Shown one piece after another: positions 1-42,861 of a DNA stretch of 42,861 nucleotides. The position numbers were made by a program, and so were the translations under genes. Source of the stretch: Oscillospiraceae bacterium (GTDB taxonomy: Bacteria; Bacillota_I; Bacilli_A; RFN20; CAG-826); the NCBI GenBank assembly GCA_963644615.1, contig CAVIPP010000002.1, positions 1 through 42,861 of the forward strand. Reading direction: 5' to 3'. Under the pieces are notes generated by a model. The model did not search any database and was not told the DNA's origin. It saw only the letters and a program-made list of their open reading frames with translations. How positions within the stretch are numbered: the stretch's first letter is position 1; every line of letters begins with the position of its first letter.

Positions 1-1740
1 GCTTATGATGCTTTGAATGAATATGTCGAAAAAGTAGATGGTGTATTTAACAAACAATCACTAGATGGATTCGACAATCTTAAAGACTACACTTTTGTTA
101 TTTATCAACATGGTATTGCAAATTTATTTATGCTGTTTGAGAAGAGAGACTACTATTTACAGAAGATAGAAAAGACGCAATTATTCTATAAGCCCAATTA
201 TTATCAAAATGGAATTCCTTTCTATTCTGAAACAGGCTTAGAGTATCCTTTTGATTCTCAAAGTGATTTCACTAAAGGATATTATACAATAAAAGAAGCA
301 ACTATTCATTTTGTAAGACCTACTGAGTTTAATATGGATGCAAGTTATTACAATGAAGTTAGTGGTGAATACGTCCCAATTTATACAATTAGACAAATTA
401 TAAATTCAGGTAAATACTACTATTTTGATTACACGACAAAAACAGAAACATCTTTTATCAAAAATAGAACTAAATTTGATGTTACTATATATCAACATAA
501 ACAAGTAGGAACGACAAATGAAGATGGTTCTTATATTATTGAATCAGATAAAGCACAACTGTTAACAAACATAACTTCCTTTATAGTAGACTGAAAAGGA
601 GCAAAAAGTGCAACAGTTTCTATACCGAATGAAGATAATTTTCTTATTATTAAAGTAGAAGATCAAACACTAGATAGTGATGCAACTTTATTCGCATCAA
701 TGACAAATGGTAGTTTTTGATACCGATACGCGCGTAGTAATAAATATCCAATTTGTTTCTCTCAAGCCGCAGCAATTGAGACACAATTAACCGAATATTG
801 AAATAATGCTTATACAGCAAGTAAGTTCTGTGAGTATTACTTACCTGACACTTGAGTTCAATATAGTGATCAAAAGGAAAATTATACGTTCGAAAAGATA
901 TTTAAAGTAACAAGCACTGAATTGCAAATCATAGATGATATTTTGCCGCAAGTTGAAATTTTTACTCGTAGAGGAAACGCAGTTTTAGATAAATTTCAAT
1001 GAACTTATAATCCTCCTAGTAAATTATCATCTGCAACACAGGTCTTAAATCAAAATATTGAAAATGAATATGTCCCAGCGTCTCAAATTGAAGATAATGA
1101 GGCAATCCGCAATATTATGATAATGTTGGGTGAAGATATCGAAAACTTCCAATTAGAAAAAATAGGCAAGCAAACTTATTATTATTCTCGCACTGGTGGC
1201 ATCTATTGAAATGAATTGATTAAGGAATTAACAGGAAAAGCTTATGAGCAATATAATGGGTTATATGTAATGATATATCAAAAATTATTAATGTATGATC
1301 CATTGTCTCTAAGCACTTATGAGAAATTAGTTAAAGACCACGATAATAAATGAAAGGAAATTTATCAACGTTTCAACCATGTTATTTTAGAGAACTCCTA
1401 TGAAAATAACGATGCAACAACAACTAATGAACTTTATACTGCTGCATATTATTATTTCTTAGACTTGACAAAGCCTGAAAGACAGTATAATATATCAATT
1501 ACCGATTTGTATTTATTAAAAGGGTATCATGGGCAAGAATTAAAAATTGGAGATCCTATTGAACTTAGAGCAGATGATTTCTATTCTAAAAAAGACTTGA
1601 TTTACAAATCATTAAAACAATATCTATTTATTTCAGATTTATCTTATGATTTGCGCAATCAATCAAAATTAACTGTCACGATTAATAATGTTAAATACAG
1701 CGACAAATTGATTAATAGATTAGTATCATTAATCAGATAG
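1..1740 (+). CDS. Tail-associated structural protein, 5'-partial (enters from upstream of the window); one ORF only if TGA is sense
   Basis: Track ORFs 13..594 and 1465..1740 share frame 1. I translated 595-1464 codon by codon and found no TAA/TAG and 7 in-frame TGA (592, 718, 799, 853, 1000, 1207, 1351). Ends TAG 1738-1740, followed by a strong hairpin. The product guess is weak and rests on the adjacent tail-fibre gene and a C-terminal region resembling siphovirus tail/endopeptidase-tail proteins. Confidence 0.75.
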
Positions 1741-1747
1741 TAAAAAC

Positions 1748-1777
1748 GAGAGAGAAGAAATTGACTTCTTCTCTCTC
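1748..1777 (+). terminator. Perfect 12-bp hairpin after the tail gene
   Basis: gagagagaagaa (1748-1759) pairs with ttcttctctctc (1766-1777) around the 6-nt loop attgac. There is no clear U-tract, so it may be a partial terminator or RNA-stability element. Confidence 0.5.
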
Positions 1778-1789
1778 AAATAGTATAGT
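1761..1789 (+). promoter_or_regulatory. Sigma-70-like promoter for the tail-fibre gene; the -35 box lies inside the upstream hairpin
   Basis: TTGACT (1761-1766), 17-nt spacer, TATAGT (1784-1789), then AAGGAG RBS and ATG at 1812. Confidence 0.5.
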
Positions 1790-1811
1790 TATTATATAAG
1801 GAGAATTAAAT

Positions 1812-2615
1812 ATGCCAGCAAATTGAAAATATGTTAAAGGATTAAATCAAGAACAAGAGAAATCATTTTATACATACTTAAATTTTAACACTCCAAAAGA
1901 CGCTAATGATCCATCTAAACCTTTGGAATGGATGCCTACTGTTACTTTGAAGTGAGATAGTGCGGAACATTCATTAGGTAGAATATTATGTAGTGAAGTC
2001 GAAGGACAAACTATAAAAGGAGACTTTTCTTTGTCTGCAGGCAACTTAATTATACCGAATAATTGTTTTTTACAAACAAAAAGTGCAGACAAGCAGAACA
2101 ATTTAATTGGATATTCAGAATCTTCTAAAAGTATTGAAATCGGTTCGTCTGACATTTCTAAAGTTAATGTTTCTAATAATCTGCATATAACAAATTATTG
2201 TACATTAGGTCCCGTGACACCAGGAGGTAAAGAGCCTGTGGCGGGAGATGTATACTCTAATAATCTTTATGCGATTAATAAGTGCGAAGCAGGCTTCTTT
2301 AATACTACTTCAGACAAACGCGCGAAAACAAATATTAAAGAGCTTCAATTAGACGCGGTTTCATTCATCAAAAAAGTTCCTTTATATTCTTTCACATATA
2401 AAGATACAGACATCCCTTCTATTGGAATTCTTGCGCAAGATGTTCAAGATTTAAACATCGAAGGGTTCAAAGTAGTTGATAATATAGATGCTACTGGACA
2501 AAATATGGATTATATGTCCATCCATGAATCTAAATTAGTATATATATTGTGGCAAGCAATAAAGCAACAACAAAAAGAAATTGATGAATTAAAAGCGCAA
2601 TTAAAAAATAAATAA
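1812..2615 (+). CDS. Tail fibre / receptor-binding protein with C-terminal S74 intramolecular-chaperone (autoproteolytic) domain
   Basis: ATG 1812 follows an AAGGAG RBS. It is in frame with track ORF 2031..2615 through 2 in-frame TGA (1824, 1953). The C-terminus SDKRAKTNIKEL...LAQDVQ...ESKLVYILWQAIKQQQKEIDELKAQL is the typical S74 chaperone signature. Stop is TAA. Confidence 0.85.
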
Positions 2616-2691
2616 TTGTTTGCGAAGAGGGTGGTTGGAGCATCGATTTTTTTGGCCTGTGACTATTCCGGACACCCATTCGTTTTCTTTT

Positions 2692-2720
2692 AAAAAGACC
2701 TTAGTTATTAAGGTCTTTTT
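2692..2720. terminator. Bidirectional intrinsic terminator between convergent genes
   Basis: aaaaagacctta (2692-2703) pairs with taaggtcttttt (2709-2720). A-run on one side and T-run on the other. It overlaps the stop of the minus-strand gene ending at 2701. Confidence 0.75.
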
Positions 2721-4893
2721 TATCATTTTTTGTATATAAAACAAAACAGTTATGTTTGGCTTTATTAGCATCACGATAAGTGCTTACGCTACATTTTGCA
2801 GGTTGACCTCCAAATAATTGTAACGCTGCTATTTCTGCTGCCGGACTTAATTGTTTTATTCTTTTTTGTACAAGGGTAGAAGAAGGACGCCCAATGAATT
2901 TAGATATAAAAATAGGAGTACTGTATTTTCCTACAAATTCTGGTTCTTCGCTGTTTCCTGAACCATATAATCACTTACGACCTCATTGTTTAAAACGATC
3001 TCCAAGGACTCGGTCAGTTCACTCAATATTGTATTTTTCCGTATGTGTTATAAATTCGTCAATATCTAATATTCCTCATTGAAAACATATAGGAACAAAC
3101 TGACCATTAACAGTAAAATCATCATTTTTATTTAAATGATTTTTTCCATCGGGACGCATTTTTGCGAAGAAATGAATTAAATTATATTCATAATTTGGTA
3201 AAAATAGATGTTTAACGAATCATTTATAAGTATAAGTCGTATTATATTTAGAAATACCACCAAGGTTTCGATATCCTGATCAACCGCTGGATTTTACTTC
3301 ATAACCAAGAAGAGGTTTTTTATCTTTGTTATTATTTCTAAAATTAATAGTATACCATTTATCAAACTGTAAGGGGGATACTCATTTTGGTAGTGCAGTA
3401 GCATTTGGTTTATATGGTTGCGTTGTTTCTCCTTGACGACAGAAAACGGCATTATCTATTTGAGCATCTAAATATAACTTTATATAAGAATATGATTGAA
3501 TATCTTCTATTTTATCGCCATTATAATAATAATAAATAGTACCTTTTTTATAAGAAGCTTCAACATAGTAAAATCCTTTTTTAGCTTCTTCCTTTTCATA
3601 TAATCCACCATGATCTTGTGCGGCTTTAGAAAAATCGTCTCATGATTCGTAAGAGCCTAGTTCTACATATAACTTGCTAGGAGTATTATAAAACAATTCT
3701 AATCTAAAAACCCCGATATTAACGTATGGTTTATATATTACAACATTAGTTGATGAAATATGACCTGCAGACGACTGAAAGGTAGTTGATACGCCATCAC
3801 TTAAAGTATATGTTCCTCATTCATTATTAGCATATTGAACAGGTTTATTAGTCATATCTATTAATCTGATATTATTTCTTTGTGTGTTTACGGTATATTC
3901 AAATTCTTTGCCATCAGGTTGTCGTCAAGAATTCTTCCTTCTATAACAGTTAACAATATAATCTCGTGAAGGAACTAATACTAATTCTAAGTTTTGTTGC
4001 AGTAAATAATTCATTATTTGAACAGAAGTGTATTCTATATAATAAAAATCTTTCTTGTTGTCTTTATTTACATCATATCCGATATAAGTTCCATCAGACA
4101 AATATAAAATTCCGTTATTCTCTATTAAAGCTGCTAAAAATTTTTCATAGGGACTATATTTTGTACCAGTAGTTCCTCCTTTTATCGTAAAAAAACTTTC
4201 ATCTTTGTGTGTGTTATATTCATCCTGAATACTATCATAAGGTTCTAAATCATTTTTTGTCGCAGATATTTTTCAATATAAGTTCTCATTAATTTCCAAT
4301 TGGTTACAAAATTCATTTGCAGTTGAAAACGTTAGTGCTTCACTGTTATATATATTATCTATGCCGATTTTTAAACATTCTGGTTCTGTATCATCATATA
4401 TAATTTTTGGAGGCACGTCTTGTAAGCGCTCTAATATAGCACTAGATCCTTTAGATTGGAGAATTTTATAATCACGATAGATAACTTTTTGTTGTAGCAA
4501 TCCAGGTGATTGATATTCTAAAATAGTTCCTTTATCATCTAAAGAATATCCAGTAGAAGAATGAAAGAAAAAGAAAGAAAAATTATCTAAAGAATATGTC
4601 TGACTTGCATTTTCTCCTGTTATATATAAAGTTCCATTATCTTCTTTTACACCAGTGATATAAAACATTATATAAAAATTGCGCAAAGAGGGATTTCCTT
4701 CTATGCTTGTAATATTTTGTAAAGAAGAAATATCAGGGCGAGTAGGAATAAAAAAGCCCTTGTTTGTAATAGTTTCTTCTTTATCATATTTAAGAATATA
4801 ACTTGTATTTATTTGAAAATTGTTTGGTTTATTTGTTAATTCATATGGTTCCGAAATTGGTTGAACATAATAAAAATCTTTTTTATTTTGCAA
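2701..4893 (-). CDS. Large hypothetical protein (~730 aa), probably structural; start codon uncertain
   Basis: I translated 4272 down to 2701 in one frame and found no TAA/TAG and at least 11 in-frame TGA (for example 4273, 3925, 3817, 3640, 3382, 3280, 3220). Stop is TAA 2701-2703. The only start candidates after the upstream TAG (4948) are TTG 4893 or ATT/ATA codons; the first ATG is about 70 codons in. Confidence 0.65.
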
Positions 4894-4947
4894 ACCTCTG
4901 GCAGGACTTTCAATTATATATTGATAATAAATACGTGCGTCTGAAGG

Positions 4948-5487
4948 CTATTTACCATAACGACTTACTATTTGAAAAATATAATCTTCATAAGGATTAA
5001 TTTTTATTTTTCCTGTACAATAGGCTTCATTCGAAATAAAGGGGAGAGAACGGATATCTCTATAACAAGAAGGGTATGCTACAGTATATGCTCAAGTTAA
5101 TGTTCAAGGAAAAAACAAACCCTTGTCACAACATTGATATCAATGATTAGGATATATAGAAGAATTAACTTTAACATATGAATTATTTTTTATTTGTGTA
5201 TCATAATTTTGTTGATAGAAATCAGAATTAACCACATACAATTTTGTATACTCATCAGGCTGTGCGAAGTTAAATAAGATGGTCTTCAAATCTATGGTAT
5301 TGGCTGCAGAATCATCTTTTACCTGCTCATATGTTTTATCGCTAGCCAATGAACGACCAGAGCGGATATGAGTAGGCATCAAATTAGTAACACGTTTGCC
5401 AACTATATCACCATAAATATTAGGGCCAGCATCTTTTTCTAAAGTATTATGTATTTTTTGATAATTTAATTCATAAGTATTCGCCAT
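4948..5487 (-). CDS. Hypothetical protein (179 aa)
   Basis: Track ORF 5140..5487 extends through 3 in-frame TGA (5140, 5104, 5092) to TAG 4948-4950. Its ATG overlaps the upstream TAA (TAATG at 5485-5489). Confidence 0.7.
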
Positions 5488-6567: not shown

Positions 6568-7020
6568 ATGGAATGACTCGTAGGAGGAATGTGCGTTATT
6601 GCTAATCTTATAGTGACTACAGTGGTAGGTTTATATATTAAGTCTAAATGAGAAAAACGCGCAAAAGAACAACAAGAGTATAGTGAATTAAAAGACAAAC
6701 AATTGCGTGCAGAAAGACAAGAAGATATTCTTACTAATGTAACGAAAGTTGTAAAACCCATAGAAGAAAAATTGGCAATTGTCGAGCAACAACTTGCTAT
6801 AAATGCGGAAGGAGCCTGCGCGGGTCTCAGATGTCAATTATTAGAATTCTATTATGATTGCGCTAAGAAAGGCTTCCGAACCCAAGATGATAGTGAAAAC
6901 TTTACTAATATGTATAGTGCTTATACTAAACTAGGCGGAAATTCTTTTATTCAAAAAGATATTAGTAAGTGATTCTATGAGTTGCCGCATGAATCAATAA
7001 ATGTAAAAGGAGGCAAATAA
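6568..7020 (+). CDS. Membrane-anchored coiled-coil protein upstream of the holin (possible lysis-cassette component)
   Basis: ATG 6568 lies 8 nt after GGAGGAA. It is in frame with track ORF 6703..6972 through 3 TGA (6574, 6649, 6970). N-terminal TM segment LVGGMCVIANLIVTTVVGLYI. TAA at 7018-7020. Confidence 0.65.
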
Positions 7021-7021
7021 A

Positions 7022-7402
7022 ATGCCACAAGAAATTATGAATATTATCTGATCCGCTTTAGGTGTTATCATCACAGGATTAGTAACTTTTGGAGTTACAA
7101 AATTAACTTCATGGATTAACTCTAAAATAGGAGACCAAAAAGCTGCGAACTATTTATCGACAATTGTTACTTTAGTTGGTAATGCAGTCAAAGACATATA
7201 TCAAACCTATGTTGAATCTTTAAAAACACAAGGTAAGTTTGGACCAGAAGAACAAAAAGTAGCATTGGAAAAATGCTTAAATCAAATTAAATCTCAATTA
7301 GCTCCTGATTTAATAACATATATCACAACTAATTTTGGTGACATGGATAGTTATTTAAGATCTTTAATTGAAAGCACAATTTATAATCTTAAAAATAAAT
7401 AA
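7022..7402 (+). CDS. Holin, LL-H-like family (126 aa)
   Basis: AAAGGAGG RBS, ATG 7022, one in-frame TGA (7049). N-terminal TM ALGVIITGLVTFGV, then ...INSKIGDQKAANYL...AVKDIYQTYVESLKTQGKF..., the pattern I recall for LL-H-type holins. Missed by the track because of the TGA. Confidence 0.65.
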
Positions 7403-7424: not shown

Positions 7425-7446
7425 AAAAGAGTCATTCGACTCTTTT
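7425..7446. terminator. Bidirectional intrinsic terminator
   Basis: aaaagagtc (7425-7433), loop attc, gactctttt (7438-7446); lies between the convergent holin and exonuclease genes. Confidence 0.7.
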
Positions 7447-8057
7447 TAAAATAGACTTTTTGTGCTGTCCGAGTTCCAATGATCTGGATGAACGATTGGG
7501 TCCACATAGAAGAAAATATTTTTAAGCATCAGAACGTCTGCCAAGGCATCATGCGCGCCGGCGCTGCTAAAACCCAATGCCTCCGCTACTAGGGTTAATC
7601 TCCATTTTCGACCAAGTTTATCTTTTAAACCAAAAAGGTTTTGTTTTTTTGCTATTGCAATGCAATCATAATAACCATCAATGCCAGGAAAAACTTCTTT
7701 ATTAAAATAATTATAAGGTATCTTTAATACTTTGCATCGCTCATTTAACATTGGACGGTCAAAAGCTTCACCATTATAAGTTAACACTACATCAACTTCT
7801 TGTTGTTTCATCCAACAGCAAAAATCTATCAATACTTCTGACTCAGGGCGACAATTAATTAAATCCTTTGCATAAATGCCATGGACTTTACTAGCATCAG
7901 GATCAATTTTATGAGTAGTTCTAATTCTTTCGTTAAAACTATCTATTATGTTTCCCTTTTCGTCACAAATGAGCGCGGCGATTTGGACAGGTGCGGCGCT
8001 ATTCCAGTAAACGCTAGTGGTTTCTGTATCCAATATACATATTCTTTTATATCCCAT
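7446..8057 (-). CDS. DEDDh 3'-5' exonuclease (DnaQ / Pol III epsilon-like)
   Basis: ILDTETT (Exo I), YNGEAFD (Exo II), HDALADV (Exo III). No in-frame TGA; 4 Trp, all TGG. I prefer the ATG at 8057 (AGAGG RBS) over the track start at 8096. Confidence 0.85.
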   Translation of the reverse strand: MGYKRICILDTETTSVYWNSAAPVQIAALICDEKGNIIDSFNERIRTTHKIDPDASKVHGIYAKDLINCRPESEVLIDFCCWMKQQEVDVVLTYNGEAFDRPMLNERCKVLKIPYNYFNKEVFPGIDGYYDCIAIAKKQNLFGLKDKLGRKWRLTLVAEALGFSSAGAHDALADVLMLKNIFFYVDPIVHPDHWNSDSTKSLF

Positions 8058-9177
8058 AAATAAATACCTCTTGTCATTTTTTTCAAGGAATATCATTCTC
8101 TGATAGAGAAGATTCTCCTCATTGTATTGTTAAAAAATCTTTGTCTGTATAGGTTTGTCTAAGTAAATCTCTAAAAACTTCATTTCATTTTTCAGGATGT
8201 CCCCAGAATTCTACGTTGCGGCCGAATTTGAGACCAGGACCGTATTCCGTTGTTATCCATTCTAGCCAACTGTATTGAAATTTATTATGTGTTCAATTAC
8301 TAATTGTTTCGAATAATAGGAAATAAGGCGTATCCATGCGGCTCGATATCATTTTTAATTCAATGGCGATCCTTCTTTTTTTTGCATCAACAATTACCTC
8401 TTTTATGCCGTTTCAGTCCTGTAACGCCGCGTCAGGGAATTTCCAGTGTTCTTTTGCAAATATCTTTATTATTAAAGGATTTATTTTAATTTCCTTTCAA
8501 TGTTCCTTCATTTTTTCTATTGCTTTTATACAGCATGAATATTGAGTTAAAGGAATTGGCACCCATTGAAAATTTACTCCTCGTTGAATATGAAGCTTCA
8601 AGAATAACGTTAAGAGTTCTTCATCAGAAGCTAATTTTGGAAGCCAAATTGGTTCAAAAAACGCCACATTTAGAACGTTTTGCAATTCAATAAGGACCTT
8701 TTTAAGATTTTCTTTTGAAGTTGTTCATAAATTAGTATCCGTTACAATAACCCTTTTAGTGTGGAAACTATTGCGCCAATTTTGTTTAATAGGAAGTAGT
8801 TCTCCTTTGTTATTAAGAAATCGTATTTGCTCTCCTCTTTCTCAATCTGTATTCTTTTCAGGATAAAGCAAGTAATCTGGTCGACAAGCGAGCATTGCAT
8901 CCGGCATGCGCCAATTAATTTTTCTTTTATAAGCCTTACCCCACCATCGAACCGCTCCATTTGTGTAAAATTCAAATGGAGCATTTGGGGTAGTTTCGTT
9001 TTCTTTTATAATATAATAAATATCATAAGGTCTATATATATCATCTTTTTTTAAAACGAAATTAATTTGATCACCGCATTGTTTATGATAACTTGCAATT
9101 TTCATCGCATCAGGGTTAAAACAATTAACTTTTTCTTTTGCATAATAATAGTCTAAGTCTCAAATAGTAATTTTCAT
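8047..9177 (-). CDS. Hypothetical protein (376 aa), TGA-rich
   Basis: ATG 9177 overlaps the polymerase TAA (TAATG). I translated the whole frame: track fragments 8842..9105 and 8497..8685 are joined, with 10 in-frame TGA (9160, 8842, 8725, 8497, 8413, 8293, 8185, 8119, 8083, 8074) and no TAA/TAG until 8047-8049. Confidence 0.75.
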
Positions 9178-10621
9178 TATGCATCCTTCTTTTCTTCGAA
9201 TTCAACGAAGTCACCGTCTTCATCTAAAATAATTTTCAAAATAGATTTACGACCTGTGCTTTTATAAACTTTCGGAACAAAAGTCATTCCTCTTTGAATA
9301 CCAGTTACCAATAAATGAACACCTTTTTCGAAGAAGCTATCTTGTTCAATATCTTTATCGCCGTTTTCGTCCGTATCGCCTACAACGTTCATAAAGGTTG
9401 CGAATAAATCTTTATAAACTTTTAAACTAACGACACCATCTGGACATTGTAAAGTAACTAAACCTTTTGTTCTATCTCTATCAATGACTGTTCCCGCGAT
9501 AGTATAAAGTTTCATACGAGGAATTTCTTTACCTTTAATATAGAAATTACCATCCTGCATACCTTCTACAATAGTATCAATTGGATTAATCGCTATTGGA
9601 AGCTGTTTAATAACTTTTTTCAAAGGATGTCCACTATAATAGAAGTTAATACTATCTAATTCCCATTGTAAATCGTCACCACTGCAATATTTTTGATATT
9701 CATCGCTAAATAGTCGTTCATTTAACGCTTTAAGTAAAGCTTCTTGATTTTTGGAAATATAAGTTTTAATCTTTGACATTTCTTTATTATAAAAGTAATC
9801 CCACTTAGTGCTGTCTAAGACTTTGCGCGGTTCATTATCAATCATCAATTCTTGGCCTTGGATTCCGCTATCCTTTAAGATATTCTTCCAAGATTCGATT
9901 TTATTACTAGGAATGTCTAGTCGATCAGCGCAATACCATAATTTTTTGCTGTCTCGATGTTTTCTTAGTTCCTTTGTCATTTTATATAAATCACTTTGAT
10001 AATCAAAATCTGAAGGAAGTAAGTGCAAATCAATTAACATATTCGCATTTTGTAAGGTTAATTTAGTTTTTAAGTCTGCAGTTGTAGAAATATATTCCTT
10101 TAAAATATCTTTTCTACTTTTGCCTTCTATATGGTCAAAAGCTCCGCATTTTATTAAATTAATTACTTTTGGCTTCGTTATTATTCTTTTTTGAACTTTT
10201 GATAAAAAATCTTTTAAGCTTGTAAAAGGTCTGTTGATCATAATTTCTTCAATAACGGGTTCAGTAATTTGAGAGATACCTTTTAAGCCATATAATATGC
10301 TATTATGTTTTACATCAGGAGTAAAAGATAATCTAGATTCATTTATATCTGGCATATCAATATTGCAAACGTTTCTAAACTTATCCAACGCGGACGCAAT
10401 CTTGGCATAATCCATTTTATTTTGAGCTTTCTTTTCCTCCCCCGCGTCGCCATCTACGATATCATTTTCAATTAAATTGTAAAAGTCGGCGGCATTAATC
10501 GCACTGCTATCGACAGATAAGCATGCACAATTCCAATAAATAATTGGATAATGATATGCTAAATTCATTTCTTGTAAAGCGATTAAAGCGTATCCAGTCG
10601 TATGAATTTCTGAAAAACTAT
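9177..10621 (-). CDS. dnaE: DNA polymerase III alpha (DnaE-type), exon 2
   Basis: The frame extends upstream of the track ATG (10568) as ..SFSEIHTTGYALIALQEMNLAYHYP, matching the DnaE GY-F-SH...YA...AHYP motif. No TGA. TAA at 9177-9179. Confidence 0.85.
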
Positions 10622-13852: not shown

Positions 13853-13885
13853 TTTTATTCTCCTTTCTAAATATATTATATTATA

Positions 13886-14158: not shown

Positions 14159-14169
14159 AAATATGCTCC

Positions 14170-26239: not shown

Positions 26240-26268
26240 ATTATATAAAGTATTTTTGGCTTTGTCAA
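26240..26268 (-). promoter_or_regulatory. Consensus sigma-70 promoter upstream of the topoisomerase operon
   Basis: Minus strand: TTGACA (26263-26268), 17-nt spacer, TATAAT (26240-26245). Confidence 0.65.
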
Positions 26269-28675: not shown

Positions 28676-28676
28676 A

Positions 28677-33609: not shown

Positions 33610-34077
33610 TTAAATTTCTAATTTTTTGCGGGCTTTCACGGCCAAGAGGTCGACATAATTATTTCAGGTATTATTACTATGCGATTGAACTTTTACGACT
33701 TCAAGGTTTACATTCTTTTTAAGTTTAATAAATAAAGCCACAATACGCTTCCATAAATCTTGATTTTTTACTTCTTGTCTATCTGCGGTCTTTCATCCAT
33801 TCTTCATTCAAGTTAAATACCAACCTTGATTAAAGGCATTAGAGATATAAGCGCTATCAGTATATATAATAACCTTTGTTTGTGTTGTTTCTATTGTATC
33901 TGCATTTTCAAGAGCAGAAAGAATTGCAGTTAACTCCATTCTATTATTCGTAGAATAAGGTTCATAACCGCTCTGTTCGTCGATAATCATATTGTCTTCA
34001 AGACAAATCGCGGCTCAACCACCCATTTCAGTTTTAGATGAGTAAGCACCATCAACATAAAATTCTAGTTTACGCAT
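33610..34077 (-). CDS. rnhA: Ribonuclease HI
   Basis: MRKLEFYVDGAY...NNRMEL...IYTDS...NNYVDLLA covers the DEDD catalytic set. 4 in-frame TGA. GWYLT-TGA-MKNG-TGA-KTADRQEVKNQDLWKRI aligns with E. coli [28 protein letters not shown], so two TGA fall on conserved Trp. Confidence 0.85.
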
Positions 34078-34576
34078 TGTGAACCTCCAATTCATCCGCG
34101 GAATGAATAAATTCTTTTTCATCTACTATTGTTTTTTCATCGCAAAGCATAAAAATTAAATCTTTATATTTTATTGTTAAATTAAAAATATCATTAATGG
34201 TTTGATAATTAGACGCTTTTTTAATCAATGAAAAACTTGTTTTTAAACATTTTAACTTTTCAGGGGCATCTAACCTATAATCTGATGAACGACGTTCTTG
34301 CTTCGACATCATGCGGAAAAATTCTCCGCATGCCACATTAACAAAGCCAAGAAAGAAATTGCAATCGTCTTCGTTCGCGACAGAAGAATCGCTATCAAGT
34401 TCTAATTCGTAACTAACCGCAAGAGCATTGTGTTTAATCATGCGCGAAAAAATGTCGTCGCAAAGCTTTTTTAATTCAAAAACCGCCGCTTCAGTATTAA
34501 TCCCGGTGCAGTATGATTCCGTGGCGTAATTAAATTCTTTGACTATTTTAAAGTTCTTAAAATCTGCAAATAACAT
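34070..34576 (-). CDS. Hypothetical protein (168 aa)
   Basis: AGGAG RBS. ATG 34576 overlaps the TAA of the upstream exonuclease gene. I consider the track's upstream extension to 34636 spurious. Confidence 0.6.
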   Translation of the reverse strand: MLFADFKNFKIVKEFNYATESYCTGINTEAAVFELKKLCDDIFSRMIKHNALAVSYELELDSDSSVANEDDCNFFLGFVNVACGEFFRMMSKQERRSSDYRLDAPEKLKCLKTSFSLIKKASNYQTINDIFNLTIKYKDLIFMLCDEKTIVDEKEFIHSADELEVHNA

Positions 34577-35163
34577 TATTTTTTCTCCTGTTCTTCGATT
34601 TTCTTCAGATAAGTATAAACAGCCACTTCTCCTCACACATCATTATAAGCGTTATGAGCATGATGAATATAATAACCGCACTCATTGCAAAGATCAGTGA
34701 GCGTTAATTGTTCTTTGCGCTTTAAAATCTTACGAGCATTTTCAAAAGTGCAATACCCGTCTATCGGTTTATTATTTGTAAAATTAAGATTTAAGCCGTT
34801 TTCAACCAATACTAAGCGGTCGTTTTTAAGGCCATGACTAATAACTAATATATCTTCTTTATTTATATCTTTCAAGAAATCTTCCTCTACTGACAGAATT
34901 AAATCCTTTAATGGAACGCCATTTTCTGTTAAAAAATTAGTAGTAATAGAAGTATATTCAGCAAATGGATAACAAACTTTTTCAGTTACATATTCATTGC
35001 AACTGCGCATTAATTGATAAGTATCGGTATCAATTCATTTGAAAAGAAGTCCCGCAAACTGCACGAGATGATTATTAGTTTCATCTTTAGTCTTATTATT
35101 AAAAAACTCTAAATCAATAAATAAAAGATAAAGATGATTTTCATTATAACATTTAATAATCAT
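34576..35163 (-). CDS. DEDDh 3'-5' exonuclease (second copy in the window)
   Basis: ATG 35163; LLFIDLEF (Exo I) and HHAHNAYNDV (Exo III). 2 in-frame TGA, at ~35048 (position read by eye) and 34633. Reading through the TGA at 34633 ends at TAA 34576-34578, which overlaps the next ATG as TAATG. Confidence 0.75.
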
Positions 35164-35278: not shown

Positions 35279-35545
35279 TTAAAATTTAAAAGTGTCAAAA
35301 ATCCAATCAAAAATAGAACAATTTGAATTGGTAAAAGTAGTATGATAACTACCGTAATCTTTTAAGAACGCATCTAACAATTTTTTATAGTTATTAAATG
35401 CTTCTTCAACTTCTTTTGCACGAGCGCTTCTTTGTTCACGTTTAGCCTTTTCTTCTGCTTCGTGTTTTACTAACGTTAATTCCGCGTTCTTTAAATCTTT
35501 CTCGTTATCATAAAGTTTACGAGTTTTTTCAGAATAATACTTCAT
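35279..35545 (-). CDS. Small coiled-coil hypothetical protein
   Basis: 88-aa ORF bracketed by its own promoter and terminator. Confidence 0.6.
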   Translation of the reverse strand: MKYYSEKTRKLYDNEKDLKNAELTLVKHEAEEKAKREQRSARAKEVEEAFNNYKKLLDAFLKDYGSYHTTFTNSNCSIFDWIFDTFKF

Positions 35546-35625: not shown

Positions 35626-35654
35626 ATTATAAAAAAAGTTCTTGATTTTGTCAA
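35626..35654 (-). promoter_or_regulatory. Consensus sigma-70 promoter whose -35 lies inside the upstream terminator stem
   Basis: Minus strand: TTGACA (35649-35654), 17-nt spacer, TATAAT (35626-35631). Confidence 0.6.
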
Positions 35655-36301: not shown

Positions 36302-36396
36302 TGGCAGGGGTGACAGGAATCGAACCCGTTCGAGCCCGGGTTGGAACCGGGTCGGCGGTTTTGAAGACCGCTGTGCAGCCACTACACTACACCCCT
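36302..36396 (-). tRNA. Opal-decoding tRNA (anticodon UCA), tRNA-Trp-like, with an atypical 25-nt extra arm
   Basis: Minus-strand sequence: AGGGGTG TA GTGT AGTGGCT GCAC A GCGGT CT-TCA-AA ACCGC [CGA CCCGG TTCCAAC CCGGG C TCG A] ACGGG TTCGATT CCTGT CACCCCT G CCA. The acceptor stem is 7 bp with A1:U72, the discriminator is G73, and CCA is encoded. The T-loop is TTCGATT and the anticodon loop is CU-UCA-AA. Acceptor and anticodon arms closely resemble E. coli tRNA-Trp as I recall it (AGGGGCG..., CCGGUCUCCAAAACCGG). Confidence 0.9.
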
Positions 36397-36745
36397 ATCT
36401 TGTTTTATGATAGTGCTTGATTTTGCGTCTCGCGATGGTTGTTTTACGAGCGTATGGTATAAGACTAATATTATAACCATGCGGTTGCAAGGTATTTAAT
36501 TTTAGAATCCAGTAACGTTCCTGGTCATTAAGTTTAGCGATGGGACAAAATTCAAGCACATCAAAACGAAATCCATGGTTGTCTTTATTTCAGTCGGCTT
36601 GCATTAGTTTATTTTCATGACAACCTTTTCTTAATGCTGTAAAATGTTCTTTTTTACGATGATAAACATTTTTACTTTGACCGACATAAATCTTGCCGGT
36701 TTTTAGATTTGTTATTTTATAGATACCAGCAAGAGATAAAGTCAT
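36395..36745 (-). CDS. Free-standing GIY-YIG endonuclease (116 aa)
   Basis: GIYKITNLKTGKIYVGQS...R..H...LRKGCHENKLMQAD-TGA-NKDNHGFRFDVLE...ERYWI...GYN. It has one in-frame TGA, at the aromatic position of the L-x-x-x-(F/W)-N-K motif. The TAG stop (36395-36397) overlaps the first nucleotide of the tRNA. Confidence 0.85.
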
Positions 36746-36747
36746 AA

Positions 36748-37029
36748 CTAATGATTTAGTTTAATTACAACGGTCCAGGTTTCTGGTCTTACAATTTCAC
36801 CGCTTTTATTAATTTTACCTTGTTTATACTTCTTACTATGTGCGGAACACATTGGATTTGCAACAGAAGCATTGATTTTTTCATCGGCTTCTTGTTCATC
36901 TTCAAAAATGTAAGTTTCTTTTGTTTCGGTAACAATTAAATGTCCACAAGTATCATCTTCTGTCTTTACTTCAAACTTTGTTAGATTATTTAATGTGGCA
37001 ACATAACCTGATAGATCTTCTAATCTCAT
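36748..37029 (-). CDS. Hypothetical protein (93 aa)
   Basis: First ORF after a consensus promoter; no TGA; stop is TAG. Confidence 0.6.
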   Translation of the reverse strand: MRLEDLSGYVATLNNLTKFEVKTEDDTCGHLIVTETKETYIFEDEQEADEKINASVANPMCSAHSKKYKQGKINKSGEIVRPETWTVVIKLNH

Positions 37030-37058: not shown

Positions 37059-37087
37059 ATTATATGATATTTAATTTAACTTGTCAA
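37059..37087 (-). promoter_or_regulatory. Consensus sigma-70 promoter driving 36748..37029, the GIY-YIG gene, the tRNA and the lipoprotein gene
   Basis: Minus strand: TTGACA (37082-37087), 17-nt spacer, TATAAT (37059-37064). Confidence 0.65.
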
Positions 37088-37684
37088 TTATTTACAAGGC
37101 TTCAAACCGTACTTTTTTTGCATAAACTCTAAAAATCATGTTTCAATATCTTCTGTTTTTAGTCCTCATGCGCTTAAACCGCGGGGATATTTAATACCAG
37201 ATACTGATGTAATTTGACGAATATGTCTGACATTTACGTGCAACATTATTCCGCAACAAGAAAAATAAAGTCCTGGTCATGCCAAATTTTCGCTATGAGT
37301 GCCAAACTTAAAGTATTTATCATCTTTATTATGAACTAACATATCATGATGCAATTCTGTCAATTCATGCCCAAGTTGTACATCAACATTGCGCTCATGA
37401 AGTTTTGCAGATAAGAAGTTTCATCAATTAATAAAGAAATTATCCTTTTCAGTAGAGTAGTGATAAATAATAATATCACCTTTTTGCATAACTACACAAC
37501 CACCTGGCACAATCAAAGGCAAACGGGAAATGTGCATACGATTCATTACATTAATATTATATTTCTTTTGTGGACTATTGCCATGGAAAGCATATTCCTT
37601 ATCTAATACAATATAATATGTGTCTTGCGGTTTTCCATGGGTAAGCATTTTAACGCCATCATCTATGCTAATTTTCTTTAACAT
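37088..37684 (-). CDS. Hypothetical protein (198 aa)
   Basis: ATG 37684 lies 1 nt after the dUTPase TAA. I translated it: 5 in-frame TGA, including the tandem pair at 37421-37426, and TAA at 37088. The track ORF 37424..37747 is its N-terminal part with a spurious upstream extension. Confidence 0.65.
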
Positions 37685-37685: not shown

Positions 37686-38174
37686 TTATTTACCTGAACT
37701 GCCCAATTTTCCCGCACCGCGTTCAGTATCAGTAGACCATTCTTCATTAGAACACTCTCTACTTTCTACTGTTGGCATCTCGACAGGAATAAGCTGAGCA
37801 ATAGCTTTGCATGCTGGATAATAAAAAACTTTAAGGGCTTCATCAAAATAAGGTTTATCCATTGCACGCGTAATAACAACTGGGTAATCGTTGTCATTTT
37901 TAATGCAAATAAAAATAGTTCCTCTGTAATCTTTATCAATAACTCCGCAATGGACATGCATTCCGCGAGAACCTGTTGAACCTCGATCAAATGCCATTAA
38001 CCAATAGTTCCCCTCAATTACAACTCCTAAACCAGTGGAAAAAAGGAATTGGCTATGTGGTTCTAAGCGGACAAAATCTTCAATTGTATATACATCATAT
38101 CCTGCGGCATCTTCTTTCTTCGTTGGAATAACCGCATTAGACTTAAATTTAAACCATTTTAATTTACAATCCAT
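37686..38174 (-). CDS. dut: dUTPase (trimeric dUTPase/dCTP-deaminase fold)
   Basis: AAGYDV, GSTGSRG, GVIDKDYRG and C-terminal ERGAGKLGSSG motifs. No TGA. Confidence 0.85.
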   Translation of the reverse strand: MDCKLKWFKFKSNAVIPTKKEDAAGYDVYTIEDFVRLEPHSQFLFSTGLGVVIEGNYWLMAFDRGSTGSRGMHVHCGVIDKDYRGTIFICIKNDNDYPVVITRAMDKPYFDEALKVFYYPACKAIAQLIPVEMPTVESRECSNEEWSTDTERGAGKLGSSGK

Positions 38175-38770
38175 TATAAATCTCCTTTAAAAGTATCATT
38201 TATTACTAATTCTTCATCTTTATAATTCTCTTTAATAAAGTTTAATACTCATTCTTCTACTTGTCAAGATTTTATATCCCAATTAGATAAACCGGAAGGA
38301 ATCTTTCAAGAAGGTTTTGTGCTACAAAACTTTGCACGCCACTTGTTGTCTGTGATAGAGACATGCATAAATGAGAGATTACGACCGTCAACTAAGCGGA
38401 TTTTTGCGCACCCAGCTACTTTATACTTTCCATCAATTAAAATATCATTATCTTTATTACAAGCATTGATGCCTTTTTCTTTTAGTTTTTCAATTAAATA
38501 ATCATTTAATCTAGTATTAAAATGTTCATTAGAAGGTCGAATGGCAACAATAGCAAAATCATTTCTTGAGAATAATATTGGACCTCCTTCACGAGGATAA
38601 TATCAAGTAGGAATTTTTAATACTTCACAGGCGATATCATTTACATATCCTTCCTTTCCTACACTTAATAAAGTTTTTTGATGTATGCCGCATAAAAAAC
38701 CGCACTCTGAGGTGTTAATCCAGGTGTCAAGTTGTTTTATAACTCCTTCAAAAGTATCTTTAATAATCAT
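38174..38770 (-). CDS. Lipoate/biotin protein-ligase-family (LplA/BPL-like) domain protein (198 aa)
   Basis: AAAGGAG RBS and ATG 38770; 4 in-frame TGA. NDILIDGKYKVAGCA resembles the LplA/BirA NDLLxxGKKIxG motif. Its TAA overlaps the dut ATG (TAATG). Confidence 0.5.
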
Positions 38771-38868
38771 AAATTATTACTCCTTTAATAAACAGCAATC
38801 TGAGATAAATCTGATGTCAATCAGATAGATGCATCTTCTTCGCGAACAGAATGCGCAACAGGAAGCTT

Positions 38869-40290
38869 TTTACCTTGAAAAACCGCCACTTTGTTGTCAC
38901 GATAGGCTAATTTTTTATCATGTCGTTCATTATCTTCTAATTCTCATTGTGAGTTCTTGTAATTATTTATAGTATAAGATATCATCGGTCCATAAAATTC
39001 AGTTCATCTGTTAGTAACGAAACTAGCCGTTATATCTTGTTTACGATAAAGGTCATGTATTTTTTTAGATAATGTTGGTCTCATTTCGTTAGGATAAACT
39101 AATTTTATTTCACTTGCGGTCATTACAAGGCTTTGTGCAGTATATTCTGGTGTATTTTTAGTCGCTTCAACGAAGAAGTCATGAAAAATTCTAGTGGCTC
39201 ATTGTTTAACCTTTGTTTGAACTCCTGAATCTGATGAGCTGATCGCCGCAGTAGGAGTTTGATTTCATCATTTTGCACTTGGAATGCCACTTGCCTTTAA
39301 ATCAACTAATTGAGAAAAGCTTAAAGTAAGTGCGCGACCACTAGTAAAAGTATTTTTAGTAAAAAGTTCATTAATATATTTATTTATATCTGTTGTAGTA
39401 GGATGCTGACTTGCGTACATTCTTATTCGATAACTAAAACTATCTGTGATGGTTTTGGCAATAGTATCTTGAATACCATTAACTCGTCTTAAAACTAAAT
39501 TCATCGTTGGAACATTTATTTTAAGATACTTTTTTAATTCTTTACTAAATTCAACTCATGCTCCTGTTTGAGTTTGAGGGTCTCAAAACCATTTTGTTGT
39601 TTGCTCTCCAATAAATTCCCTTCAAGTTTTCTTTGTAGACTTCTTTAGATTAGCAGAAAACATCTTTTGTAAGTCTTGCCAATAAGAACTATTTTTTAAT
39701 CATTGCGCAAAAAATTGATCGATATTGCTTTGTAATTTTCCTAATTGTAAATCTATATAATCTAAAACTCTTAATGCTTCGGCAGGAGTAAAAGATCTTT
39801 GTAATATTAAAGTATCCGGAGCGCTGGCCAGACATCAACCATAATATTGACCACCCATTTCAGCATTAACTACCTTAAAACCTTGTTGTCTTGAAGCATA
39901 GGCTATATGTAATATTTCTGCGGCATCGAGCTTCATTAGTTCGTCATAAACAAAATCCTGTTCTATTTCATTTACTATTGCATTATTCTTTGTGTTCTTA
40001 GTTGTCAAAGGAGAAACACGTTTACCATAGGGTCTCAAATTCTTAAAAAACTCTTTATAAGTCTGTTCATCAAAACCATAATTAGGTTCTGTATATATCT
40101 TAAAAGATATTTCATTTAAGTTATGACTACGAATGGCCTTTAATAAATCAGGCTCACTGGTATCTTGTCCTGTATTTTTATAGGCAGCATAAATATGCGT
40201 GCGAACACGACTAAAAGAATCATTATCTGATGCGGCCGACTGCCCAATATAACATTTATTCCCGATTGTAATATAATATATATATTTCAT
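38869..40290 (-). CDS. GIY-YIG nuclease domain fused to a ~320-aa domain of unknown function (473 aa if TGA is sense)
   Basis: KYIYYITIGNKCYIGQS...AEILHIAYA...VVNAEMGG form a complete GIY-YIG domain that ends at TGA 39835. I translated onward in the same frame, through track ORF 39268..39504: 10 in-frame TGA and no TAA/TAG until 38869. No RBS or ATG supports a separate downstream gene. Confidence 0.7.
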
Positions 40291-40313: not shown

Positions 40314-40340
40314 AAAAAAGTAGAAGAGCAAATCTTCTAC
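40314..40340 (-). terminator. Intrinsic terminator directly after the structured RNA
   Basis: gtagaaga (40320-40327), 5-nt loop, tcttctac (40333-40340); a 6-nt T-run follows on the minus strand. Confidence 0.7.
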
Positions 40341-40348
40341 TTTCGGTA

Positions 40349-40660: not shown

Positions 40661-41740
40661 CTAAATAAATAAATAAGAACTAGTATCTAATGAATATTTT
40701 TCATCAATGTATTGAAGATAATCATTCCATAGTATTTTTTCCATTGTAAAGTGAAATTTTTTACTAATATCTGTGCGACATTGAGAATATCAATAAGCAC
40801 GCTGACGATTCGTTGTATTTTTTACTGTTTTTCCAAAGTTAATAACCATTTTAACGAATAATTCTTCTAATTGTTGATATTTAAATCGAGTATTTTCATT
40901 AGTTAAATCTTGAAAATCGTCAGAAGAAATAATTAGGTATGTGAATACCATTGATATTATAAGCAACTCATCTCATCTTCTGCAATTTTGGTAAGAAGGG
41001 AAAAGAGCCTCTAAAACCGCGTAAGTCGAAGCAATATAGTCATCAGTATTCCAATACATGTATGTTTTACCATCATGATTCCAACGAGAAGTTACGCTAT
41101 TTGGATTTCTTTTTCATAGGTAAGCATTAATTGGCAAATGAATTGCATAAGAAGCAGGAGCAGATAAGCCTACTACTTTGCCAAAATAAGTGTCTTCAAA
41201 GGTTCTTAAAGATGGATGAAATTTAATATTATGTTGTTTAATAAAATCTCTATTTCATACTTTGCCATGCATCCAAATCATTGATGGTTGATTATGAGGA
41301 TATAAGAAATATCCTTTATCTTCTGTTATTTGTTCTTCTAAAAAATCGCACCATATATAATTTCAAGGTTGATGTTTAGCTTCTAATGAACGAATCTCAT
41401 TTAATATCTTCATCAATACGGTTGAGTCGTATAATTGATCGTCCGCATCACAGAACATTATATAAGGTAAATTAGTATGATCCATACCACATTGCCGCGC
41501 CAAACCAGCACCACCATTCTTTTCTGTTTGTATTACCTCAATAGGAAAAGAAAAGTTATGAAGAAAATCCTCTGTTAATTCCCTTCTGCCGTTTTCGTCC
41601 GCATCGTTGACAATGGTGACTTTGATAACTTTATTTAAGTTTAATCCTACTTGTATATTTATAGAGGAAAGTAAATGACCTATTACTTCTTTCTTTTCTT
41701 GATAATGCGGAATAATTATATCTAAACAAGGTAAAGTCAT
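40661..41740 (-). CDS. Family-2 glycosyltransferase (GT-A fold, 359 aa)
   Basis: IIIPHYQ...VNDADENG...MFCDADD (DxD). Track ORF 41363..41740 extends in frame; I translated it fully: 5 TGA (41363, 41255, 41114, 40973, 40790) and TAG at 40661. Confidence 0.8.
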
Positions 41741-41759
41741 ATTGTTTTATTGTCTCCTG

Positions 41760-42683
41760 TTAGTTTTTAAGATTAAGATTTTTAATAATATCTAACGCAG
41801 CTGCGGCGCCATCTCCGCATGCAAGCACAATTTGTTTATATGGTTTCGAAGTGCAGTCTCCAACCGCATAAAATCTTTCAAGGGATGTGCGGCCGCAAGG
41901 TTGAGTTATAATAAAATCTTTATCATCTAATTGTATATCTTTAAAGTCTTTAAGAATGGCGTTATTTGATTTTTGTCCTATTGCGATGAAAACGCCATCA
42001 ACAGGCATAGAAAATTCTTTCTTTTCTTTCTCATTGCCTAATGTTAAACGTCCTTTTACTAACATGCGGTCTTTATCTTGTTCAAAAGAACTAGTAAACC
42101 AGAACGGCACTATTGAAAGCTTTTGTTCTTCTTCAAGTTGTCTAATTGCATCTTTCCATTTTTCTTCACCGAACAAATTATTTGTAAGTGTTAATAAAGA
42201 TACATGTTTTACATATTCACTCAAAGCGATAGCATATTGCATTGCACTATTGCCATCACCAATCACTGCCACGTCTTTATCTGCGTAAAGAGGTCCATCA
42301 CAAGTCACGCAATAATGTATATGATCGAGATCTTCACCTGGCACCTTTAATTTTAAATGTTCACTGCCGGTTGCCCATATAAGGTATTTTGATTCAAAAA
42401 CCGCCGCTTCAGTGTTAACCCGTAGACCATTTTTAAGCTTGGTGATTGAAATTACTTCACCAAAAATAAAATCTATGTCTTGTTCAATAGGATTAAACAT
42501 TTCTTCTGCTAATTGAAAACCACTGCCGTTAAAGCCAGGATAGTTTTCTATATAAGGTGCTTTAGACATATTACCGCCAATAACATCTTTTTCTATAATG
42601 GCTACTGTCTTTTTGGCACGTCTTAAATAAATGGCCGCAGTAATTCCCGCAGGACCTGCTCCTACAATAATTACATCATACAT
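41760..42683 (-). CDS. trxB: Thioredoxin-disulfide reductase
   Basis: VIIVGAGPAG (FAD), CVTCDG redox-active dithiol, VIGDGNSA (NADPH), AVGDC. No TGA; 3 Trp, all TGG. Confidence 0.85.
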   Translation of the reverse strand: MYDVIIVGAGPAGITAAIYLRRAKKTVAIIEKDVIGGNMSKAPYIENYPGFNGSGFQLAEEMFNPIEQDIDFIFGEVISITKLKNGLRVNTEAAVFESKYLIWATGSEHLKLKVPGEDLDHIHYCVTCDGPLYADKDVAVIGDGNSAMQYAIALSEYVKHVSLLTLTNNLFGEEKWKDAIRQLEEEQKLSIVPFWFTSSFEQDKDRMLVKGRLTLGNEKEKKEFSMPVDGVFIAIGQKSNNAILKDFKDIQLDDKDFIITQPCGRTSLERFYAVGDCTSKPYKQIVLACGDGAAAALDIIKNLNLKN

Positions 42684-42706
42684 TTTATTTTCTCCTAATA
42701 TATTTT

Positions 42707-42735
42707 ATTATAAGAAGTTTCTTTTACTTTGTCAA
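42707..42735 (-). promoter_or_regulatory. Consensus sigma-70 promoter for trxB, the GT2 gene and the structured RNA
   Basis: Minus strand: TTGACA (42730-42735), 17-nt spacer, TATAAT (42707-42712). Confidence 0.65.
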
Positions 42736-42823
42736 GAAAAAGTCTTTTAGCCATTTTTTGATAATGATAAAGTTGCTTTATTTGGCTTTTTATTGTCTAA
42801 TTATAATAGACAGTGGGGAATCT

Positions 42824-42861
42824 ATGAGTATAAAAATTAAATTGAAAGAAGAGAATAATAT
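42824..42861 (+). CDS. Start of a divergent ORF (MSIKIKLKEENN...), runs off the window
   Basis: GGGGA RBS-like element, ATG 42824, TATAAT at 42802-42807. Too short to assess. Confidence 0.3.
   Translation, partial: MSIKIKLKEENN

Follow-up and report, generated by a model that had tools for sequence, protein, structure and literature searches.

The DNA analyzed here is a 42,861-bp stretch (the window; contig CAVIPP010000002.1 of GenBank assembly GCA_963644615.1) with a GC content of 31.8%. We were concerned with the use of TGA as a sense codon in part of its genes and with a tRNA predicted to read that codon. With TAA and TAG as the only stops, about 51 open reading frames (ORFs) were called, nearly all on the minus strand. 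These contain 100 TGA and 106 TGG codons in frame and end in TAA (35 genes) or TAG (16 genes); TGA never serves as a stop. An earlier note, made from the sequence alone, had likewise found only TAA and TAG at gene ends and had put the in-frame TGA at about 95. It had also proposed comparing gene calls under the two codes. ORFs of at least 100 amino acids (aa) cover 0.70 of the window under table 11 and 0.93 when TGA is sense, and a control in which TAG was read as sense gave a coverage of only 0.75. TGA occurs in about 45% of the genes of at least 80 aa. We consider it highly likely that the window represents some 43 kb of a phage from gut or rumen, large (~110-130 kb), low in GC and of virulent type. 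In this reading the phage uses code 4 for ~45% of its genes, and the standard code suffices to read its replication core and whichever gene comes first behind a strong host-type promoter. The features that carry the argument are the following.

24204 to 26150, minus strand: GyrB/ParE-like topoisomerase subunit (topo B; Pfam families matched on an orthologue), 0 TGA and 5 TGG
21205 to 23415, minus strand: GyrA/ParC-like topoisomerase subunit (topo A), 0 TGA and 4 TGG
17070 to 18662, minus strand: DnaB-like helicase, 0 TGA and 2 TGG when counted from the Met at which the alignment with relatives begins
15995 to 17068, minus strand: primase-like protein, 0 TGA and 2 TGG
14170 to 15981, minus strand: RecJ-like DHH phosphoesterase, 0 TGA and 5 TGG
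11255 to 13852, minus strand: exon 1 of DnaE (Pol III alpha), 0 TGA and 20 TGG
10569 to 11254, minus strand: intron-like insert in DnaE with a decayed GIY-YIG ORF (MKIYIYSFINKINGHRYIGKT...)
9177 to 10568, minus strand: exon 2 of DnaE (HHH_6 and C-terminal part), 0 TGA and 5 TGG
8047 to 9177, minus strand: Trp-rich protein specific to the phage family, 10 TGA and 10 TGG, the first TGA at codon 6
7446 to 8096, minus strand: DnaQ-like DEDDh exonuclease, 0 TGA and 4 TGG
33610 to 34122, minus strand: RNase HI, 4 TGA and 3 TGG
36302 to 36396, minus strand: phage tRNA with anticodon UCA, which reads UGA (ARAGORN; Rfam tRNA model, 51.4 bits)
36362 to 36364, minus strand: the anticodon UCA, in the loop CUUCAAA of an arm that lies one nucleotide after the D arm
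36335 to 36351, minus strand: extra arm of the tRNA, CCCGG-UUCCAAC-CCGGG, a 5-bp stem and a 7-nt loop with U-CCA-A
36395 to 36745, minus strand: GIY-YIG homing-endonuclease-like gene, 1 TGA, whose TAG stop shares two bases with the start of the tRNA

The identity of the residue at TGA was assessed by aligning TGA positions to homologues, a check that the earlier note had suggested; TGA was found on conserved Trp columns, where it interchanges with TGG. In RNase HI, three of the four TGA codons align with Trp in solved RNase HI structures (PDB chains). The two TGA singled out in the earlier note are Trp of the Escherichia coli motif W-x3-W-x4-W, and the TGG-encoded Trp that the note had seen in the same motif is its first. 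In gene 8047-9177, 7 of the 10 TGA coincide with columns in which 33 or more of 40 homologues have Trp, and the column of the codon-6 TGA is Trp in all 40. Opposite the window's TGA codons, relatives mostly have TGA or TGG, next Tyr or Phe, and Gly or Ser almost never. These alignments indicate that TGA is Trp and not Gly (as in code 25), Ser or selenocysteine (Sec). They also bear on the reading that pseudogene decay, faulty assembly or rare programmed read-through accounts for the in-frame TGA codons. That reading has nothing in its favor but the presence of stops under table 11. Such an origin is virtually impossible, given that 100 TGA are spread over about 21 genes that have no in-frame TAA or TAG and are restored to full length, and that orthologues in independent ENA, Logan and JGI assemblies share the same codons or have TGG; these comparative data already refute it.

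The distribution of TGA among genes is far from uniform (G-test for TGA/TGG heterogeneity, p = 2e-15). The replication block has 1 TGA and 52 TGG compared with 99 and 54 in the remaining genes (Fisher p = 1.8e-17), and the lone TGA is doubtful, being codon 2 of the DnaB ORF, upstream of the point where the alignment with relatives starts. The two gene sets do not differ in how often TGA occurs in the noncoding frames (3.5% and 3.0%), and the depletion is therefore specific to the reading frame. The earlier note had named DnaE, the RecJ-like protein, primase, DnaB, topo A and B, the DnaQ-like exonuclease, dut and trxB as TGA free and had argued that this was not chance. All of these genes are indeed TGA free, and the Fisher test and the conservation of the pattern in relatives bear out the argument; DnaE, taken in the note as a single ORF of 1346 aa, is split in two.

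We compared the codons with those of five relatives at 42-99% aa identity. In the early genes, 129 TGG codons were kept and none had changed to TGA; 20 Trp codons had newly arisen, and 20/20 were TGG. In the other genes, 29 changes from TGA to TGG and 16 from TGG to TGA were counted, and new Trp codons appeared as either TGA or TGG. The absence of TGG-to-TGA changes from the early genes, together with the exclusive use of TGG for their new Trp codons, argues for purifying selection against TGA; by this comparison, the TGA-free state of the replication genes is held by selection across the phage family. It would follow that the early genes are translated at a stage when TGA is still a stop, and the host is accordingly predicted to use the standard code.

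Could the host itself use code 4 (e.g., a member of the Mycoplasmatota), with the TGA-free replication genes reflecting recent acquisition or codon bias? The lack of genes ending in TGA and the low GC content (32%) would fit, as would the metagenome-assembled genome (MAG) bins that contain relatives, which give no consistent host. The bins (Parabacteroides, Gemmiger, and Lactobacillus amylovorus) are mutually inconsistent and are best read as misbinned phage contigs, so we rejected them as a source of the host's identity. We regard a code 4 host as highly unlikely. Early genes are TGA free in all five relatives while the others flip, as expected from purifying selection and not from recent acquisition; off-frame TGA is as common in early genes as elsewhere; and the phage has its own UCA tRNA. 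Furthermore, the ~45% of genes with TGA compares with published fractions of 26-71% for recoded phages of standard-code hosts and ~90% for phages of recoded (code 25) hosts.

The relatives form a large family. A search with DnaE returned 2,944 database homologues at E <= 1e-50, the closest of which, at 60-83% identity, come from ENA, Logan, JGI, and NCBI assemblies. They lie on contigs of ~90-131 kb from bovine (one bovine metagenome), human, and other gut samples, and a near-identical phage was found on a contig of 108,770 bp. Megablast of positions 1-25000 against GenBank phage DNA gave no match, an IMG/VR search with DnaE gave one distant locus, and the GenBank phage protein search gave only a distant DnaE match of 40% identity, in Bacillus phage SPbeta (YorL). 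YorF and Sak-type genes also are shared with SPbeta, which, unlike the phage of the window, is temperate and standard code; the likeness is confined to replication proteins.

The tRNA at 36302-36396 is the sole tRNA found in the window by ARAGORN and Rfam. It and the split in DnaE were absent from the earlier note. It folds into a cloverleaf with a minimum free energy of -41.7 kcal/mol, and its CCA end is encoded. The 7-bp acceptor stem includes A1-U72, G2-C71, G3-C70, G4-C69 and G5-C68 and is followed by G73, the same acceptor-stem set as the Trp determinants listed for Bacillus subtilis and E. coli (PMC9976931). The anticodon likewise is a major Trp identity element (PMC9976931). Between the anticodon and T stems lie 25 nt that form a hairpin, not the 4-5 nt of a class I variable loop. 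This extra arm has the geometry and the core sequence of the anticodon arm of tRNA-Trp(CCA): the anticodon position holds UCA, not CCA, and CCA sits in the extra arm. In related phage contigs, a canonical tRNA-Trp(CCA) gene adjoins a tRNA of the window type, and the two are plainly paralogous. Judged by these features, the tRNA is predicted to work like an opal-suppressor derivative of tRNA-Trp.

ARAGORN labels this tRNA "SeC," and its long extra arm and G73 are features recognized by seryl-tRNA synthetase. Both observations would suit a decoding of TGA as Sec or Ser. When the tRNA was tested against tRNA-Sec, however, the acceptor was found to have 7 bp (U8 faces U), giving a 7/5 and not an 8/5 architecture, and Rfam clan competition kept RF00005 (tRNA) in preference to tRNA-Sec. 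With its Trp-type acceptor stem, this makes the ARAGORN label misleading. The A1-U72 pair, the B. subtilis Trp determinant set and the clear paralogy to the neighboring tRNA-Trp(CCA) genes of related contigs all point the same way, and the 7-nt loop of the extra arm differs from the 3-5 nt of Ser, Leu, and Tyr arms. Since TGA also sits on invariant Trp columns, swaps with TGG, and is almost never opposite Gly or Ser, decoding as Ser, Sec, or Gly is scarcely credible, and we rejected it.

Viral contigs were scanned for a UCA arm (the UCA loop being fixed by design) and the hits were passed to ARAGORN. This yielded another 26 distinct UCA tRNAs, 90-100 nt long and Trp-like at the acceptor end. 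All 26 have the extra hairpin, with the loop N-U-C-C-A-A/C-N, and the commonest loop, CUCCAAA, is exactly the anticodon loop of tRNA-Trp. UCCA is invariant in 27/27 aligned members of the family. By contrast, the stem of the arm varies: in a covariance-model alignment, compensatory changes were seen at 5/5 pairs and 95% of cells were paired. This alignment is fitted to the structure, and a hand parse of the extra arms agrees with it; both were used in place of MAFFT, which misplaced the strands of the extra arm. The linker from the extra arm to the T stem is 3-5 nt, which is the length of an ordinary variable loop. As controls, eight Sec-like long UCA tRNAs of the same scan lack UCCA, a further point against the Sec reading, and in 48 Ser, Leu, and Tyr tRNAs of these loci the loops measure 3-6 nt; none (0/48) is 7 nt long or contains UCCA. 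A second scan that left the anticodon free, and that covered one subfamily, found the two-arm build only with UCA (12/12). The family is widespread and resides on low-GC viral contigs, mostly of 100-140 kb and often beside a canonical tRNA-Trp(CCA), and most of its loci gain ORF coverage under code 4. The window tRNA is best described, on these comparisons, as a putative tRNA-Trp with a tandemly duplicated anticodon arm, the first copy of which has turned to UCA. Within the searchable literature we came upon no account of a tRNA-Trp(UCA) whose extra arm has a CCA loop, which is not proof that it is unpublished.

The same tRNA is present in a close relative (L006). In four other relatives (L038, L079, L089, and L112), a tRNA with a different extra-arm stem and the same UCCA lies at the syntenic site, and the order of a 36748-37029 homologue, the GIY-YIG gene, the tRNA, and a 35279-35545 homologue recurs. 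The GIY-YIG endonuclease may move the tRNA cassette between phages. Separately, nine loci on viral contigs (L021, L033, L039, L041, L047, L062, L095, L096, and L127) carry long UCA tRNAs that resemble genuine tRNA-Sec: they have G1, an acceptor strand of the type GGAGAUG or GGCGACG, and no UCCA in the loop of the extra arm. A CUA tRNA (labeled "Pyl" by ARAGORN) also was seen beside a two-arm UCA tRNA at two loci, L102 (3898-3971, 74 nt) and L098 (from 138, minus strand). Phages of this type may hold suppressors for two different stop codons.

What the second arm might do can be approached from its conservation. Invariance of the loop alongside compensating changes in the stem implies selection on the loop sequence and not a neutral relic. 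In the scheme that we prefer, the UCA arm would decode UGA on the ribosome and the CCA arm would show the cognate anticodon, an identity element needed by bacterial tryptophanyl-tRNA synthetase (TrpRS), to the TrpRS of the host, serving for charging either as a decoy or by alternately stacking or swapping into the anticodon position. That the CCA arm helps TrpRS to recognize a tRNA whose working anticodon has lost C34 is a tentative suggestion, clearly short of probable. We put forward with similar reserve the broader notion of an undescribed natural tRNA class, a two-armed tRNA-Trp that would offer its CCA arm to the host TrpRS and so permit recoding without a synthetase of the phage's own. 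Alternatively, the extra arm may be a neutral duplication relic or have another role, with charging by the acceptor stem alone; other roles could include a shield or decoy against host nucleases that cleave the anticodon loop of tRNA-Trp, a handle for processing or modification, or help against release factor 2 (RF2) on the ribosome. This alternative is a serious contender that stops only a little short of probable. In its favor, every known Trp determinant is already present in the acceptor stem, other phages have short tRNA-Trp(UCA) that lack the arm, and the position of the variable arm is, in established tRNA structure, remote from the anticodon. Its relic form is at odds with a U-CCA motif and a 7-nt loop that stay invariant over 26 diverged sequences while five stem pairs covary; a neutral relic would thus be excluded by the loop, and other selected roles are possible.

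The arrangement of promoters suggests how the two codes might be used in time. Four perfect (12/12) matches to the sigma-70 consensus TTGACA-17-TATAAT were found.

42707 to 42735, minus strand: upstream of trxB
37059 to 37087, minus strand: upstream of 36748-37029, which is followed by the GIY-YIG gene and the tRNA
35626 to 35654, minus strand: upstream of the TGA-free gene 35279-35545
26240 to 26268, minus strand: upstream of topo B, at the head of the TGA-free replication block

All four are on the coding strand and in intergenic gaps, and the first gene behind each is TGA free; matches of 11/12 precede 23431-23694, DnaE, and 34576-35163. Promoter-like matches overall are no more numerous than in shuffled sequence, and four perfect, intergenic, coding-strand matches are unlikely to arise by chance. 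In a standard-code host, the early genes would be translated at once, and ribosomes would halt at the UGA codons of recoded genes until the suppressor tRNA had accumulated enough to compete with RF2. As tRNA from its early promoter built up, read-through of UGA would rise and the recoded genes would be released. The code change then would act as a translational timer that gates single genes even inside early units, as at 8047-9177 and 23770-24192. The earlier note had seen in the window the early-compatible, late-recoded layout of stop-codon-recoded phages, with a boundary that runs gene by gene. We judge the first to be correct, and the second is borne out by these two TGA-rich genes embedded in replication units. 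Gating therefore seems, from where TGA falls, to be translational and gene by gene, and not strictly by function.

Several points weigh against this overall interpretation. RNase HI, the UvrD-like helicase, and one exonuclease all contain TGA, and replication versus structure is therefore too simple a description of the split. The tRNA lies behind an early-type promoter, so any delay would need accumulation or competition with RF2 and not late transcription. Selection for a leaky context at TGA left no sign in the following-base test: the base after TGA does not differ from that after TGG or from the background (p = 0.15 and 0.28). The MAG bins with relatives disagree on the host. The window is 43 kb only, and a phage TrpRS, a release factor, and other tRNAs may lie outside it. 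As for the second arm, the variable-arm position is geometrically far from the anticodon-binding site of TrpRS, and the armless tRNAs of other phages indicate that decoding of UGA does not strictly depend on it.

Most relatives have an uninterrupted DnaE in one ORF of ~1345 aa. In the window, exon 1 ends in ...YVQISAQLG, and the conserved sequence restarts at SFSEIHTTG after an insert of ~650 bp; conserved coding of exon 2 resumes ~50 bp upstream of its first ATG. The GIY-YIG ORF in the insert is truncated. Rfam found no intron model in the insert at E <= 1, just two chance small RNA matches. Given the exon junction and the decayed ORF, an intron is still indicated despite the Rfam result, and the insert is likely to be a self-splicing intron whose homing endonuclease has decayed.

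The remaining annotated genes, with their TGA and TGG counts, are as follows.

1 to 5487, both strands: tail or tail-fiber-like module of four genes
1 to 1740, plus strand: tail-module gene, 7 TGA and 0 TGG
1812 to 2615, plus strand: tail-module gene with a Peptidase_S74 chaperone, 2 TGA and 2 TGG
2701 to 4668, minus strand: tail-module gene, 11 TGA and 1 TGG
4948 to 5487, minus strand: tail-module gene, 3 TGA and 0 TGG
6568 to 7020 and 7022 to 7402, plus strand: two small membrane or holin-like genes, first TGA at codons 3 and 10
23770 to 24192, minus strand: small membrane protein of 140 aa with an HECGH (HExxH-like) motif, 6 TGA and 0 TGG
27407 to 28696, 29009 to 29737, and 29753 to 31693, minus strand: tail-fiber-like and unknown late genes, 3 TGA and 2 TGG, 2 and 2, and 13 and 2, respectively
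31776 to 33071, minus strand: UvrD-like helicase of 431 aa, 3 TGA and 2 TGG
34576 to 35163, minus strand: DEDDh exonuclease, 2 TGA and 0 TGG
37088 to 37684, minus strand: unnamed gene, 5 TGA and 1 TGG
37686 to 38174, minus strand: dUTPase, 0 TGA and 3 TGG
38174 to 38770, minus strand: unnamed gene, 4 TGA and 3 TGG
38785 to 40290, minus strand: gene with a GIY-YIG-like N terminus, 11 TGA and 2 TGG
40661 to 41740, minus strand: GT2 glycosyltransferase, 5 TGA and 5 TGG
41760 to 42683, minus strand: thioredoxin-reductase-like gene (trxB), 0 TGA and 3 TGG

A recount returned the TGA numbers that the earlier note had given for 1-1740 (7), 8047-9177 (10), and 29753-31693 (13). For 38869-40290, where the note had 10, there are 11 in the longer ORF 38785-40290. 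Both tandem TGA-TGA pairs that it had reported, at 37421-37426 and 39265-39270, were found on the minus strand. In the holin-like and tail genes the first TGA comes at codons 3-16, as it often does in other genes. The match of the holin-like genes (6568-7402) to Phage_holin_6_1 is below the family cutoff. The two unnamed genes, each of ~198 aa and containing TGA, stand on either side of the TGA-free dUTPase.

Gene 8047-9177 adjoins the TGA-free DnaE and exonuclease genes on either side and contains TGA at the same place in relatives. Its product has 20 Trp in 376 residues and 159 homologues, all in this phage family. Searches of Pfam, PHROGs, and PDB sequences gave only subthreshold matches (MotA C-terminal domain and a radical-SAM family), and although the AlphaFold model is confident (pLDDT 91), Foldseek against PDB found no fold at E <= 0.001. 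A role as a late-transcription activator is unsupported. Gene 23770-24192 belongs to the early transcription unit, where it comes after topo B and before the next promoter. It is missing at that position in one relative (L004), and its homologue is placed elsewhere in two others (L007 and L009), which suggests mobility; it appears to behave as a mobile, strictly recoded gene.

The UvrD-like helicase has an orthologue of 1087 aa in a more distant lineage (11020-14283 in both L007 and L008), with faint or weak Pfam matches to intein and LAGLIDADG families; this suggests that the orthologue carries an intein that the 431-aa version of the window lacks. That lineage uses TGA much less, its RNase HI having 0 TGA and 6 TGG. 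In L009, a 196-aa protein downstream of the helicase gives a weak match to the lipoate-protein-ligase catalytic domain.

The code-mosaic layout is already published, and this phage adds a member. Borges et al. (10.1101/2021.08.26.457843) describe TGA-recoded gut phages of standard-code Firmicutes and Bacteroidetes, among them the ~127-kb Agate phages of cattle, pig, and tortoise gut, whose replication machinery is standard code. The structural and lysis genes of Agate are dispersed across the genome in several recoded modules, TGA has almost disappeared as a stop, and an early gene holds an intron endonuclease; recoding, in the authors' proposal, sets the timing of late and lytic genes (10.1101/2021.08.26.457843). 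The window shares with Agate the reading of TGA as Trp, low GC, the loss of TGA as a stop, standard-code replication genes, scattered recoded structural and lysis modules, a suppressor tRNA(UCA), and a homing-endonuclease intron in an early gene. Relatives of the window lie on contigs of 108-131 kb from cattle and other gut samples; Agate genomes are of ~127 kb. Unlike that of Agate, the intron ORF of the window is decayed and not TGA rich, and the paper, as far as it was read, gives no structure for the suppressor tRNA. A journal version of the study reportedly appeared in Nat Microbiol in 2022. The window, which has no terminase, very probably belongs to Agate or a neighboring clade. TAG-recoded crAss-like and Lak phages (code 15) are similar in having host-compatible early genes, recoded late genes, and a phage suppressor tRNA; they differ in reassigning TAG to Gln, in their Bacteroidota hosts, in unrelated replication genes, and in using tRNA(CUA), not tRNA(UCA).

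Suppressor tRNAs of this specificity have been studied directly. In the study of Seki et al., 13/13 phage tRNA(UCA) analyzed by mass spectrometry insert Trp at UGA in E. coli extract, and phage tRNA(UCA) compete with RF2, some of them depending on a phage TrpRS (PMC12636597). The TrpRS:tRNA-Trp(UCA) pairs of AP1 and HF2 described there resemble the window tRNA in UCA, G73, Trp at UGA, and competition with RF2. They differ in that a phage TrpRS is encoded in a "code change" operon, whereas no TrpRS is visible in this window, and the main text mentions no extra arm (PMC12636597). Type II tRNAs (Ser, Leu, and Tyr), tRNA-Sec, and allo-tRNAs (PMC5389517) also have a long arm between the anticodon and T arms, and tRNA-Sec and some allo-tRNAs share UCA and G73. 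Unlike these, the window tRNA combines a Trp acceptor stem and A1-U72 with a 7/5 architecture; its extra arm has a 5-bp stem and a 7-nt loop with invariant UCCA instead of a 3- to 5-nt loop of free sequence; and it would serve Trp, not Ser or Sec.

For the code mosaic, the value of these results is confirmatory: a further member, well documented, joins the known ones and brings with it many relatives. The TGG codons that never drift to TGA in early genes and flip elsewhere point clearly to a host in which TGA would be a stop, and recoding would gate translation gene by gene, even within early operons. For annotation, it matters that ARAGORN labels two-arm tRNAs "SeC." The part that looks new is the conserved second anticodon-like arm on the phage's TGA-reading tRNA. 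If the proposed role is true, it would be a natural answer to a central problem of codon reassignment and genetic-code engineering, that of changing an anticodon without losing recognition by a synthetase that reads it, and it would explain how UGA is recoded in standard-code hosts by phages that have no synthetase gene. Should recognition by TrpRS indeed be restored by the CCA arm, the arm may offer a transferable design principle for suppressor tRNAs.

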